A DNA stretch of 32,031 nt from a virus (taxonomy: Duplodnaviria > Caudoviricetes), in the IMG/VR virus record IMGVR_UViG_3300025534_000027, positions 1-32,031 of that record. One strand, written 5' to 3'. Under the pieces are notes generated by a model. The model did no database searches. It had not been told where the DNA came from and worked only from the letters and a program-made list of their open reading frames with translations. How positions within the stretch are numbered: position 1 is the stretch's first letter; each line of letters starts with the position of its first letter. A program made the translations under genes and the position numbers. Shown piece by piece: positions 5,939 to 27,268 of this stretch.

Positions 5939-6136
5939 GCTTTGGGCATACACTTCCGCCCGATCCCGTCTCCACAGCGGCCGCCCCTCGAACACCGCGT
6001 CCGGCCGGGGAAAGCGCCCCCGATAGGTGGGTTTCAGCGCCCGTTGGCCAGCCAGACTGACGTTCTGCTGGGTGGTGCCGAGGAGCCGCGCAAATTCGGC
6101 AGCGCCGATGAGTTCAAGTGGTTGGTTTTCAGTCAT
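5915..6136 (-). CDS. Small helix-turn-helix protein (AlpA/excisionase-like)
   Basis: LIGAAEFARLLGTTQQNVS HTH plus FPRPD...GRPLWRR wing; ATG 6136 overlapping upstream stop. Confidence 0.7.
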   Translation of the reverse strand: MTENQPLELIGAAEFARLLGTTQQNVSLAGQRALKPTYRGRFPRPDAVFEGRPLWRRDRAEVYAQSKKSPPSV

Positions 6137-6812
6137 TGGTGTCACCCTTTCGTTCTGCTTTTTCCAGGTACGGTTTGTGGTATTGTTCCTCGAGCGCTTT
6201 TCGGTCCGCGATCGCTTCCGCAAGCGTGCGCCGTATGGGCCCCCAAATACGTTTACCCTTGACCGAGATGTGCGCCTCGAAATACACCGTACCTTTTCGT
6301 ACGCGACGATACACGCCCTTGATGCCTGTACCGCTGTCCGACCTGACCTTTTTGGTCAGTAGCGGCACCTGTACGCCGTCAACGGTGTATTTGGTGTCGA
6401 GTGCTTGTCTTGCAGCGCGAATGTGATCGTGCTTAGAACACCCGCATGTAGCTGCTCCGCCAATGCGCAAAATGGTCGCCGTAAACGGTTGGAGGTTTCC
6501 GCATCTGTGACATTTACAGAGCCATAACGCTTGCCCACGCTCGTTCGTCCCGGCACGCTCAATCACTTCGAGGTCGCCGAAGCGCTGACCGGTTAGGTCA
6601 AGGGCATTCGGTGGCGTCCGTTTTCGCAGGCAGCCGCACGACTTTTTTCTGCCGGTCTGAAGTTGGCTCTTGGTGGCGACAGTGGTTTCGCCACAGGAGC
6701 ATCGGCAGATATATGCCTTCTCTTTTCGAACTTTTTCCGGCGACTCCTCGATGACCTCGAGCTCTCCGTACTTTTGACCGGGCATGATTTGTTGTCCTCT
6801 CAATAGCACCAC
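6129..6812 (-). CDS. AP2-domain DNA-binding protein with two Cys-rich repeats (HNH-AP2 related, no evident HNH)
   Basis: Two GQ(K/R)(Y/F)G.L.VIE...C.C..CG...(S/T)CGC repeats; C-terminal SGTGIKGVY...FEAHISVKGKRIWG...EAIADRKALEEQY AP2 motif; exact start uncertain. Confidence 0.75.
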   Translation of the reverse strand: MVLLRGQQIMPGQKYGELEVIEESPEKVRKEKAYICRCSCGETTVATKSQLQTGRKKSCGCLRKRTPPNALDLTGQRFGDLEVIERAGTNERGQALWLCKCHRCGNLQPFTATILRIGGAATCGCSKHDHIRAARQALDTKYTVDGVQVPLLTKKVRSDSGTGIKGVYRRVRKGTVYFEAHISVKGKRIWGPIRRTLAEAIADRKALEEQYHKPYLEKAERKGDTND

Positions 6813-6820
6813 CTCTACAT

Positions 6821-6884
6821 GCAGGTTGAGCGGAAGCCGCCGAAGCGGCTGCGCCGGGATTCTCGGCGCTCTCCCTAGCCCTGC
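6821..6884 (-). ncRNA. Twister-sister-like ribozyme, copy 2 (variant or degenerate)
   Basis: GCAGG GCUAG GGA GA GCGCCG-AGAAUCC-CGGCGC AGCCGC-UUCG-GCGGCU UCC GCUCAA CCUGC; identical P1 and internal loop to copy 1, covarying P2, altered hairpin loop. Confidence 0.7.
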
Positions 6885-7354
6885 GTTTTTCTTCTTCCCA
6901 ACGGATCGAGAACCGATATATCAGGTTCCGATTTCGGTTCCGGTTCCGTCGCATGGTCAACATAAAATTCAATTCCTGCTGTCTGGCTGCCCACCCATCT
7001 AATCTCATAAACCCCGAAACCTTGATCGAATCCACCATATTCTCCATAATGTTCTCTTCCTATACGGTCGAACAGCCTCTGGCTATCAAGATTATCGGGA
7101 GCTGCGAAGACTCGGTCGTATTGGCCAGAAATCCACGCGATAAATGTGCTCCCGAATCCTTTGTTGCGGTATCCGTCGTAGATGTCAATCCTGTCGATGT
7201 ATGCATCCATTCCATCACTTTCATTGTCTTCTTTGCCTTTCAAAAACTCAGTAACATATGCGTAACCAACTTTTTCTCCGTTGACATACATTACATAAGT
7301 GACGGTCTCATTTCCATCGAGATAGTACCGTCGATATTCGCGGATTTTGATCAT
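6875..7354 (-). CDS. GNAT-family N-acetyltransferase
   Basis: GGAGG RBS, ATG 7354; acetyl-CoA motif A (YIDRIDIYDGYRNKGFGSTFI) and NLDSQRLFDRIG; stop TAG lies inside ribozyme copy 2. Confidence 0.8.
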   Translation of the reverse strand: MIKIREYRRYYLDGNETVTYVMYVNGEKVGYAYVTEFLKGKEDNESDGMDAYIDRIDIYDGYRNKGFGSTFIAWISGQYDRVFAAPDNLDSQRLFDRIGREHYGEYGGFDQGFGVYEIRWVGSQTAGIEFYVDHATEPEPKSEPDISVLDPLGRRKTQG

Positions 7355-7388
7355 TTTCAACGCCTCCACTTCGTGATTTCCTGCCATC

Positions 7389-7453
7389 GCAGGTTGAGCG
7401 CCGCGCCCCTTTCGGGGCGGTCCCGGCTTGCACGGGACTGGGCCTAGCCCTGC
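7389..7453 (-). ncRNA. Twister-sister self-cleaving ribozyme (three-way junction type), copy 1
   Basis: GCAGG GCUAG GCC CA GUCCCG-UGCAAGC-CGGGAC C GCCCC-GAAA-GGGGC GC GGC GCUCAA CCUGC; all stems pair; UGCAAG loop and GCUCA cleavage strand match the twister-sister consensus as recalled. Confidence 0.9.
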
Positions 7454-7502
7454 TCGTCAGTCTCGCGGCTCCCATCCCTTCGACTCGGCGAAACGTGCAT
7501 CC

Positions 7503-7519
7503 GGCCATCGTCAGGCGGG
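7503..7519 (-). repeat. 17-bp direct repeat, copy A (CCCGCCTGACGATGGCC on minus strand)
   Basis: Identical to 7829-7845; contains the TGA stop of 7511-7726. Confidence 0.85.
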
Positions 7520-7726
7520 GATGTGGATCGTGTTCCCCATGCCGTCTTCCCAGCCATTCACGTCTTCGCCGGCGTCCAGCGCTTCGACGATCCGCTGCAT
7601 GTCGTCCAGGTCGGCCGGCGTAATCGTGGCGATCACTTCGCCGTCCTTTACTACGTCAAACTCGTGCAGGTCGTGGTCGAACGGCTTTTCCTCCACCCGG
7701 TATCCTTCGCGTTCCCAAACTCTCAT
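7511..7726 (-). CDS. Small acidic hypothetical protein
   Basis: 71 aa; GGAGG RBS; first gene after promoter 7760-7788. Confidence 0.75.
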   Translation of the reverse strand: MRVWEREGYRVEEKPFDHDLHEFDVVKDGEVIATITPADLDDMQRIVEALDAGEDVNGWEDGMGNTIHIPA

Positions 7727-7759: not shown

Positions 7760-7788
7760 ATTATACCATAAAAGATTGTGCTACACAA
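7760..7788 (-). promoter_or_regulatory. Sigma-A promoter TTGTGT-N17-TATAAT with extended -10
   Basis: Minus strand TTGTGT agcacaatcttttatgg TATAAT; inverted repeat TTGTG-cta-CACAA overlaps -35. Confidence 0.75.
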
Positions 7789-7803: not shown

Positions 7804-7828
7804 ATTTTTAAATTTTTTTGTTGCGCCG

Positions 7829-7845
7829 GGCCATCGTCAGGCGGG
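7829..7845 (-). repeat. 17-bp direct repeat, copy B
   Basis: Identical to 7503-7519; immediately after stop of 7847-8182. Confidence 0.85.
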
Positions 7846-8406: not shown

Positions 8407-8481
8407 ATTATACAGCATTTTAAATGCTTTGTAAATAGTTTTTTTGGGGCAGTTGCAGAAAAATTTTAAATGCCGTAAAAT
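8407..8481. promoter_or_regulatory. Divergent sigma-A promoters with shared AAATGC operator repeats
   Basis: Leftward TTTACA-N17-TATAAT (8435 to 8407) with palindrome AGCATTT-T-AAATGCT in spacer; rightward TTGCAG-N17-TAAAAT (8453-8481) with two more AAATGC. Confidence 0.7.
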
Positions 8482-25223: not shown

Positions 25224-25553
25224 AGAGCAATATATGCCCGCCGCGCTGCTGAATTGTCCATCCTGTGGTGGCCGGTGAAGCAGTCTCCCGGGGCGGCGGG
25301 CGAACCACTCACACAGGGCCTAACAGATTTGGGACTGACCCCGCGCAAGACGCGGCAGTAGGTCCCCACCGGCCCGATACATTTGGCTTTGGTTCGGTGA
25401 TCCGCTCGCCACGCCGTCACGCTGCGCAATCGCGGCGGCCCCCTGACCTCTTCGGTCGGGTGGGTAAAGCGGTCAACCTCTGCGCATTCGCGGAGGAAGT
25501 GGCGGGCATCACATACAGAACATGCCACAGTCCGCATATCGCGGGCTTTTTTA
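25224..25553 (+). ncRNA. Candidate structured RNA / late leader ending in an intrinsic terminator
   Basis: Three nested stem domains (see findings); terminator AGTCCGC-atatc-GCGGGCT-TTTTT at 25529-25553. Confidence 0.55.
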
Positions 25554-25570
25554 TTTTGAGGTGGTGGCGT

Positions 25571-26743
25571 TTGGGAGTTAAGCAATTGCTTGAGATTGGT
25601 CTAAAGAAGCGTAAAGGCGAGATCAAAGAAAGCTGGAATGATCTTGCGAAGGGCACTCCCTTTCGTGACGGAGAAGCATTTCGCCTGTGGGTTAAAAACC
25701 AGGTCAACCCCAAAAGACGGGCAGAACAACCGCAACGCAAAGAAACGGTTGAAATCCACAGCGACGGCTCCCAGAGCAGTCACCGCCTGATCTACATGAC
25801 GTTTGAAGAATCCAAAGACCCGGAATACTTGCTCAAGGCGCACGGATATAATGTTGAGGCGTGGGAACTGATATCAGCTCGGTCAAACATCTGGAACGCC
25901 TATAGCAAGCAAGACGGCATTCAAACGCTATACAGCAGCCGGATCACAGTCCGGCCGAGGAATACATTCACGTTCGAACGACTTCTTGAGAAGATACGAT
26001 CCATTCAGCCGGTCGAAATTTCAAAGCCGACCGCTGAATATGAAGACAGTATGCTGGAAATACCGCTATTCGATCAGCATTTCGGTGTCTCGGACTATGA
26101 ATACTATCGAGAAACGCAAATCCGCATTCTGACGAAGCTCATTAGTCGGAAATGGAAAGAAATCCTGCTCATCATCGGGCAGGATCTTTTTCACAATGAC
26201 GACTTCCGGGGGCGTACAGCAAACGGGACACAGATTCAACAAGTGGACATGCCCCAAGCATGGGCGGATGCGCTGCGGTTCTATGGCCCGATTATTGAAA
26301 CGAGCATAGAGGTGGCCGAGAGGGTCAAGGTCATATACAGCAAAGGCAATCACGACGAATCATTTAGCTGGACGTTTGTGCAACTGCTAAAGGCGAAATA
26401 TCCGCAAGCAGAGTTTGACGATGCTCTCGTTGAGCGCAAATGTCATGTATTCGGCGACAACTTCATTGGGATCACGCACGGGGACAAAGCGCGGAAAAAT
26501 CTGCACAACATCTTTCCTGTGGAATTTCCGTTGGAATGGAGCCGGGCGAAGAACAGGGAAATCCATACCGGGCATTATCATGTCGAGGATGGGAAAGACG
26601 TATTCGGCATGATGGTACGAACGCTCGCAACGCGAAACAAGACGGACAAATGGCACAGAGACAACGGATTCGTCGGAGCGCACAAACGTTTCATGCTTTT
26701 TGAATACAGCACAGAAGCGCTTGAGAGCATTCATTATGTGTGA
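25571..26743 (+). CDS. Calcineurin-like metallophosphoesterase with N-terminal extension
   Basis: FDQHFG, GQDLFH, GNHD, THGD, GHYH motifs; GAGGTGG RBS before TTG 25571. Confidence 0.8.
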   Translation: MGVKQLLEIGLKKRKGEIKESWNDLAKGTPFRDGEAFRLWVKNQVNPKRRAEQPQRKETVEIHSDGSQSSHRLIYMTFEESKDPEYLLKAHGYNVEAWELISARSNIWNAYSKQDGIQTLYSSRITVRPRNTFTFERLLEKIRSIQPVEISKPTAEYEDSMLEIPLFDQHFGVSDYEYYRETQIRILTKLISRKWKEILLIIGQDLFHNDDFRGRTANGTQIQQVDMPQAWADALRFYGPIIETSIEVAERVKVIYSKGNHDESFSWTFVQLLKAKYPQAEFDDALVERKCHVFGDNFIGITHGDKARKNLHNIFPVEFPLEWSRAKNREIHTGHYHVEDGKDVFGMMVRTLATRNKTDKWHRDNGFVGAHKRFMLFEYSTEALESIHYV

Positions 26744-26746
26744 AAG

Positions 26747-27268
26747 GTGGCGAGAAAAATGGAGCAGCAGCCAAATGGATATTGGACAATAAGCACGCAA
26801 GGAGTAACCGTGCGCGACACCATCCCAGGAATGGGAAAAGACGCACCAAAGGTTGTAAACGAACAAGGCGGCTCACAATCGCATTTGCCATATCGTTTTG
26901 ACTTGATCGACCCACAAGCGATTTTTGCGCTTGCAGAGGTGCTTTATCAAGGATCGGAAAGACACGGAGAAGACAACTGGCGCAAGATACCGATCAATGA
27001 CCATTTAAACCACGCACTCGCGCATATCTACGCATACATGGCCGGGGACACACAGGACGATCACCTGAGCCATGCGCTTTGTAGGATGATGTTTGCGGTG
27101 GCGCTGGAAAAGCGCGATGTAGGAAATAAGGAATGTGAACCTAAGGATGAGATGAGACAAGGTGAATGGGTCAACATCACAACCAAGTCTGATTTGGAAG
27201 AAGGATTCTTCGTACAAAAGAATGATGTTACAGGTGAGATTCGAAAACTGATAATTCATAAGCCGTGA
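26747..27268 (+). CDS. dATP/dGTP diphosphohydrolase-domain (DUF5664-like) protein
   Basis: RFDLID...LAEVLYQGSERHGEDNWRK...HALAHI...DHLSHALCRMMF. Confidence 0.75.
   Translation: MARKMEQQPNGYWTISTQGVTVRDTIPGMGKDAPKVVNEQGGSQSHLPYRFDLIDPQAIFALAEVLYQGSERHGEDNWRKIPINDHLNHALAHIYAYMAGDTQDDHLSHALCRMMFAVALEKRDVGNKECEPKDEMRQGEWVNITTKSDLEEGFFVQKNDVTGEIRKLIIHKP

Follow-up and report, generated by a model that had tools for sequence, protein, structure and literature searches.

Twister-sister (TS) self-cleaving ribozymes were found as a class through ribozymes lying near phage genes and near one another, as described in sections of PMC6765202 and PMC10085705. Their biological role is largely unknown: an earlier sequence-only reading of the DNA considered here said as much, and the pertinent section of PMC6765202, a review, concurs. 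In a different ribozyme class, the hammerheads, elements that cleave in vitro flank single variable prophage genes, and the processing of transcripts into gene-length mRNAs has already been proposed for clustered hammerheads (Perreault 2011, PMC3088659); the portions of that paper available to us mention neither a hairpin capping the product nor exchange at ribozyme seams. Paired ribozymes around a prophage gene are a known idea from hammerheads, and for the TS loop variants and the covarying hairpin reported below, we found no published description (no paper on the "anti-P1" hairpin or on compensatory variants of loop L4 was found, with Weinberg 2015 and Liu 2017 lying outside the scope of the search).

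Two structural forms and a minimal form of TS serve as references. The three-way structure (5T5A) has a pair between G27 of L4 and C14 of the junction; in the four-way structure (PDB 5Y87), the L4 guanine (G35), which pairs with a junction base in the three-way form, instead forms a triple with P2 (both from excerpts of PMC5660989). The minimal ribozymes LINE-1 and OR4K15 lack P4 and P5, which sets them apart from the two elements described here, TS1 and TS2, both of which keep the junction and L4; the LINE-1 minimal core cleaves at ~0.05/min without any L4, and both minimal ribozymes are ~100-fold slower than the full TS ribozyme (~5/min) (PMC11620745, available sections).

TS1, TS2, and their operon

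The window (the entire stretch of DNA analyzed, 32,031 nt, which is the whole virus record) encodes a serine integrase, a repressor, a terminase, a portal protein, and an endolysin, and the relatives of its portal protein are phages of Bacillota hosts. On the minus strand between the endolysin and the integrase, a promoter candidate heads a series of small genes: three ORFs of no assigned function, a GNAT gene, one HNH-like gene, and one small gene for a DNA-binding protein (Table 1); the region was found in none of 50,697 cultured-phage records. Elsewhere, positions 18799-20692 and 25265-27268 encode C5 and N6-adenine methyltransferases, a DNA-repair-exonuclease-like protein, and a protein with a dATP/dGTP diphosphohydrolase domain.

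Table 1. Features of the accessory operon, listed by descending position
Feature	Position	Strand	Basis
Sigma-70-type promoter candidate, TTTACA-17-TATAAT (11/12)	8407..8435	-	Promoter scan
Second truncated hammerhead-like 5' half, just past the stop of ORF 8182-7847	7822..7845	-	88% repeat of 7496-7519
Second promoter candidate, TG-extended -10 TATAAT (7765-7760), upstream of ORF 7726	7760..7788	-	By eye; scanner did not report it
Truncated hammerhead-like 5' half, CUGACGA core over the stop of ORF 7726-7511	7496..7519	-	Relatives, by eye
3' remnant left by a gene deletion, ending RFAESKGWEPRD*, with its stop 3 nt ahead of TS1	7457..7494	-	Relatives
TS1, canonical three-way-junction TS ribozyme (cut C7396/A7395 predicted)	7389..7453	-	Rfam match, identity to catalogued member
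Anti-P1 hairpin, CCUGC-GAUG-GCAGG	7380..7393	-	Folding; covaries with P1 across relatives
GNAT Shine-Dalgarno (SD) GGAGG, 8 nt before ATG 7354	7363..7367	-	Sequence
GNAT-family acetyltransferase gene, 159 aa, ATG 7354	6875..7354	-	Pfam PF00583 (E 6.5e-5), phrog_21214
TS2, divergent three-way-junction TS variant (cut predicted)	6821..6884	-	Fold, covariation, positional equivalence in L067
HNH-endonuclease-like gene, 218 aa, downstream of TS2	6129..6785	-	phrog_374 (E 4e-36)

The sequence-only reading had proposed an intact three-way TS ribozyme ahead of the GNAT gene, and when the sequence was re-read, every element it had named was found on the minus strand where it had been placed. An Rfam covariance search of the window bears out both class and type: RF02681 matches at 7385-7455 with 61.7 bits (gathering score, 34; E = 7.3e-12), the P3 arm being absent, and this is the sole gathering-level Rfam match across the 32 kb. 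P1 is formed by GCAGG (7453-7449) and CCUGC (7393-7389), L1 by GCUAG/GCUCAA, and P2 by GCC/GGC; P4 carries the loop UGCAAGC and P5 the loop GAAA, and folding the 65-mer on its own gives the three-way junction (-34.7 kcal/mol, z -2.3). Set against the three-way RF02681 TS (member URS0000D6A998; 5T5A), TS1 has the same L1 core, the same L4, and the same pair between junction C and L4 G, with no difference in the core. In crystal numbering (excerpts of PMC5660989), its L1 loop carries G5, C6, A8, G9, G59, C60, U61, and C62^A63, such that all core residues of the crystal structure are found, along with the SL4 pattern G-UGCAAGY-C and the three-way T2 pair (junction C with L4 G). Shared with four-way 5Y87 are G5, C6, A8, G9, G59-A63, and the L4 closing pair G29-C37; unlike 5Y87, the window elements lack P3 and have U at position 7 and A at position 64. 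According to the same excerpts, A7U is tolerated in TS, and, in the available sections of PMC11620745, A at position 64 occurs in the LINE-1 minimal core, whose 5+6 nt internal loop is the same as that of both window elements.

Compared by eye, all 65 nt of TS1 are those of URS0000D6A998, whose sequence is given in supplementary file 13 of PMC11620745 and was returned by the motif search in that paper (as far as the available parts go). Because of its sequence, the Rfam match, and this identity, TS1 is, at the level of sequence, a real TS ribozyme that is already catalogued and not new. Its novelty had been overstated, the 65 nt already being listed and ribozymes near or flanking phage genes already published (in the sections cited above), as had its rarity, with at least 127 stretches of canonical TS pattern in viral contigs. 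The cut predicted by homology to C62-A63 (PMC5660989, in part) falls between C7396 and A7395, in agreement with the site first proposed, and the GNAT start codon lies 41 nt on, where about 40 nt had been estimated. Isolated TS1 very probably self-cleaves at this C^A.

A second element, TS2, was not mentioned in that reading. A loose TS pattern has two matches in the window versus 0.11 expected (2/100 shuffles gave two). TS2 has the L1 loop GCUAG/GCUCAA and P1 strands identical to those of TS1, together with P2 GGA/UCC, two hairpins, and L4 AGAAUCC, a C of which pairs with a junction G; in context, it folds into a three-way junction with P4 and P5, at a P1 probability of 0.95-1.0. The predicted cut (C6828/A6827) lies 42 nt ahead of the next ATG (6785), and the UAG (6877-6875) within the catalytic strand GCUAG serves as the stop of the GNAT gene. 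The single distinct GNAT homologue found (P0005) likewise ends six residues after DPLG, in the same register, and the stop within the loop is retained for the window GNAT only; as family evidence, a stop inside GCUAG (23/59) was dropped, at least one case (L067) being a wrong-frame ORF.

TS2 differs from RF02681 TS in P2 (GGA/UCC), in L4 (AGAAUCC), and in the tertiary pair, which is inverted to G-C. In place of the conserved L4 letters U30, A34, and G35, it has A, U, and C, with G31 and A33 kept, and the changes are paired: U-A becomes A-U at L4 positions 1/5, and C-G becomes G-C between the junction and position 6. No Rfam TS match was obtained for TS2 at E ≤ 10, even when it was queried as 131 nt, which leaves it below the gathering threshold, and assignment to another Rfam family (RAGATH and others) was rejected, with no convincing match at E ≤ 10. 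The HNH-like gene and its leader are preceded by AGAAUCC in the window and in L184, by AGAAUGC in L058, and by canonical UGAAAGC in L067, and this L067 element, at the place of TS2, is an Rfam-positive TS. TS2 fails the Rfam score yet, as sequence and modeled folds suggest, most likely works like a TS ribozyme, and it probably self-cleaves at C^A. It would mean that L4 letters regarded as highly conserved can vary in compensating pairs.

Compensatory variation in L4 and the junction

Pattern scans and a structural descriptor, applied to 436 sources, yielded 154 distinct elements, of which 71 are three-way and 83 are four-way; the set is biased by our own search patterns, rich in related CAGG/CCUG elements, and inclusive of one contig 100% identical to the window DNA. 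In a metagenome scan with a loose pattern, 7/119 loci among the matches listed passed the descriptor. The four-way elements always have L4 UGCAAG(C/U) (83/83); the three-way elements have 19 L4 spellings, non-canonical in 53/71.

Across three-way elements with P2 GGA, GCC, or GUA, the junction-L4 pair is Watson-Crick in 56/58 (C-G in 31, G-C in 24, and A-U in 1), the other two being G-U and C-C; 13 elements with P2 GUU or GGU were left out of this count, since no such pair forms in that register. At L4 positions 1/5 (U30-A34 in the crystal), the 71 three-way elements have U-A in 29, A-U in 27, G-G in 8, C-A in 3, and other combinations in 4, and all four combinations of the swaps at this pair and at the junction pair are found. 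In an alignment of 56 sequences, the junction-L4 pair is CG in 30, GC in 23, AU in 1, GU in 1, and other in 1; 96.5% of cells are paired, a value matched by 0/500 shuffles, and slid controls reach 31-48%. Mapped on the tree, there are 7 changes of the junction base and 9 of the pair state, with only 2 supported independent pairs, a number that cannot reach significance. A model built from the alignment returned 14 non-GUU matches (two of them already among the 58) that by eye keep the junction-L4 pair, 11 as C-G and 3 as G-C, out of 21 model matches listed, the others being 2 GUU-type and 5 weak ones. In the window, no further TS element was found: only TS1 and TS2 score, both of them in the model's training set. 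This natural variation supports the junction pair of 5T5A, and the variant family, if its members are what they appear to be, is a natural source of compensatory mutants for TS tertiary structure.

At Rfam gathering in 18 loci, canonical elements are recovered in 7/7 cases and variant-loop elements in 4/24; in 8 more loci, variants are recovered in 1/6. Relatives with AGAAUCC reach gathering in 1/12 cases (37.8 bits). Since only 5/30 variant-loop elements tested reach gathering, Rfam appears to undercount the class. The 13 elements set aside above make up a third subtype: their P2 is GUU/AAC (in one case GGU/ACC), the junction is longer, and L4 reads UGAAAUU, GGAAGUU, or UGAAAUC (loci L031, L039, L047, L052, L065, L108, L110, L118, L130, and L180); none of those tested reaches Rfam gathering. 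TS copies with a broken or mismatched P1 also occur (L050 3524-3591, L063 3515-3584, two in L269, and L071 4887-4934), and in L269, the P1 halves of two neighboring elements look crossed, as recombination inside a ribozyme would give.

The anti-P1 hairpin

Downstream of TS1, the sequence of the P1 5' strand recurs, and the P1 3' strand can pair with this copy instead to form the anti-P1 hairpin, which was absent from the sequence-only reading and lies outside the Rfam model. When 10-30 nt of native sequence follow TS1 on the 3' side, its P1 pair probability is 0.02-0.04 (secondary-structure ensemble), and without the 3' flank it is 0.88 (nearest-neighbor folding, tertiary energy excluded); at equilibrium, again excluding tertiary energy, the hairpin state lies 3.7 kcal/mol below the ribozyme state. 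The description of the ribozyme as intact thus holds for its sequence, but in the native transcript the competing hairpin is predicted to displace P1.

An exact complement of the P1 3' 4-mer occurs downstream in 44/70 three-way elements, against a mean of 6.2 (maximum, 14) in shuffles and of 2.3 (maximum, 7) in a swapped-tail control. Three-way elements with another P1 have their own complement in 9/22 cases and CAGG in 0/22. The four-way elements have no excess of the downstream P1 complement (21/83 versus 24.6 expected), and 26/70 three-way elements, among them TS2, which has no anti-P1 hairpin, are without a 4-nt complement; the hairpin is therefore not a requirement of the class.

An alternative 3' module, in which the P1 3' strand is followed by GGCAAAUA(U)GCC and then CAGG, yields a capped hairpin of greater length whose inner loop is conserved (L034, L039, L047, L048, L065, L069, L108, L118, and L130). 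By exact motif, the GGCAAAUA module is found in 8 three-way elements; it is possibly a protein-binding or structured motif.

Candidate roles in expression and cargo exchange

We prefer, at about even odds of being right, the reading that TS1 and TS2 split the operon into monocistronic, end-protected mRNAs, here a GNAT unit of 568 nt if the predicted cleavages occur. It starts from what is observed: the sequence, the family membership of TS1, the folds, the covariation, the spacing, and the homology breakpoints. Both elements would be Mg2+-dependent self-cleavers serving as punctuation in the accessory operon on the minus strand of a temperate Bacillota phage; each would cut at GCUC^A some 41-42 nt ahead of the next start codon, with the GC-rich P4/P5 hairpins staying near the 3' end of the upstream piece. 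Once TS1 has cut, the liberated 3' strand of P1 would refold with its downstream copy, such that the product is released and re-ligation is blocked; the refolded product would begin with 5'-OH-AA and then a 5-bp hairpin, 2 nt from the new end, which may shield it from 5'-exonuclease decay of the RNase J type. In vivo, the GNAT gene would thereby be expressed from a monocistronic mRNA of 568 nt whose ends are defined, although it has no promoter or terminator of its own. The precedent is Bacillus subtilis, where RNase J1 degrades a 5'-OH ribozyme product and 5' hairpins stabilize mRNA (excerpts of PMC3997798); by analogy, the TS1 hairpin would free and protect the downstream message.

Spacing and orientation among relatives are regular. 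An SD-led start lies 25-60 nt past the cut in 52/66 three-way elements (median, 42) and in 55/81 four-way elements, compared with 9% of random positions and 0/68 on the opposite strand of the three-way elements. In the three-way set, TS is always oriented sense to the next gene; upstream stop codons abut the elements. In one pattern scan, 9/28 contigs hold two to five exact matches each. Among the pieces listed, no RNA-library contig spans either predicted cut, a kind of gap that proves nothing, the RNA data being assembled low-depth contigs of related strains from 4/10 listed runs; contigs of a probable DNA run overlap TS1.

We extend the preferred reading more tentatively, at somewhat less than even odds, to the whole three-way subfamily with rewired pairs, which may constitute a ready-made mRNA-end module in Bacillota phages and also a recombination seam. 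The module would consist, in order, of a ribozyme at the upstream stop, the cut, a covarying hairpin capping the 5'-OH product, and an SD ~40 nt on. If so, the TS class would gain a concrete biological role, and swappable accessory genes would become independently stable mRNAs, with the P1-covarying hairpin as a specific and mutable account of the possible survival of a 5'-OH product in a host from the Bacillota. TS1 by itself, being catalogued, adds nothing; the interest comes from its partner TS2, the compensatory family, and the covarying product hairpin, and two ribozymes around one gene (a 700-nt construct) make the role of bacterial self-cleaving ribozymes directly testable.

Because the hairpin outcompetes the P1 of TS1 in silico, it could inhibit cleavage instead of following it. 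In this alternative, an attenuator that we consider unlikely, the hairpin would compete with P1 before cleavage and TS1 would cut a mere fraction of transcripts, or would depend for its cut on favorable folding kinetics or on a ribosome positioned at the upstream stop; the ribozymes would then tune gene dosage and not separate the genes completely. Beyond the 3.7 kcal/mol by which the hairpin state is favored in TS1, native-context folding gives a P1 probability below 0.5 in 35/70 three-way elements, and the position of stop codons next to the elements (for GNAT, within the catalytic strand of TS2) would suit a ribosome-dependent switch. The low P1 probabilities, however, are in part an effect of the folding model, because 42/83 four-way elements, which are not enriched for the hairpin, score likewise; P1 may also form before its competitor is transcribed, and hairpin presence shows no association with a stop codon within the catalytic loop (Fisher p 0.27).

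Less likely again is destabilization in the manner of glmS, whereby RNase J1 would degrade the 5'-OH product and lower expression of potentially harmful cargo (GNAT and the HNH nuclease) in the lysogen. The glmS precedent (PMC3997798, in part) and the lack of a protective hairpin at TS2, ahead of the nuclease gene, agree with this, but most elements keep both a hairpin at the new 5' end and a strong SD at a fixed distance, which fits expression better.

TS1 and TS2 are common to L007, L058, L067, and L184, with other genes between them, and homology breaks within the ribozymes; from sequence comparison, and within the preferred reading too, the shared ribozyme strands appear to be seams for the exchange of cargo genes between phages. 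A mainly DNA-level role, with short repeats seeding recombination and cargo exchange and RNA cleavage incidental or tolerated, would account for these breakpoints, for the deletion scars and broken hammerhead-like halves in the array, and for cargo proteins of which 53/56 lack a Pfam family. It is nevertheless improbable, slightly more so than destabilization: the pairing, tertiary pair included, is kept despite sequence divergence and the elements always run in the sense direction of the next gene, which together argue for selection on RNA structure and not on DNA identity. Circularization of the excised 568-nt GNAT RNA, through a permuted ribozyme (5' CCUGC with TS2 GCAGG) or a host ligase, is very improbable, since for all that TS1 and TS2 have the same P1 strands and 5'-OH and cyclic-phosphate ends are the right chemistry (PMC5660989, in part), the anti-P1 hairpin would sequester CCUGC, a search for circles from clustered hammerheads found none (according to excerpts of PMC3088659), and the RNA contigs examined contain no back-joint, a weak test with low-depth assembled contigs.

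The preferred reading, punctuation into single-gene messages, may extend to other ribozyme classes, as a type II hammerhead (L031 1926-1991) and a type-P5 twister (L269 1504-1558) lie within the same arrays as TS variants and could share this role. As to what the arrays carry, cargo behind TS elements includes one ArdC-like anti-restriction protein and two weak Cas_VVA1548 matches (L073 218-757, L109 3104-3658, and L255 342-1172), a hint of counter-defense functions.

Upstream of TS1, the array appears to have been eroded by deletion, given its two hammerhead-like halves and the tail of a deleted gene. The C terminus encoded by the remnant also ends an SD-led 110-codon ORF in L007, and the same DNA precedes TS in L037 and L067. 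An intact hammerhead upstream of TS1 was ruled out: the element is a half fused to the gene remnant, and the halves in the window have no Rfam hammerhead match; of a type I hammerhead (CUGANGA core, stem II, GAAA, stem III, and NUH), only the 5' half is there. Full-length hammerhead-like versions with GAAA and three stems were seen by eye in L033, L050, L283, and L292, and full-length elements with one extra base after CUGANGA occur in L033, L049, L050, L283, L292, and L434; the five full-length loci tested gave no hammerhead match at Rfam gathering. Finally, one contig (run X3, record 16) joins window positions 7078-7106 and 7494-7526 via ~27-29 letters that look like a CRISPR repeat, perhaps of type I-E, which suggests that neighboring host spacers are directed against GNAT and against the stretch upstream of TS1.
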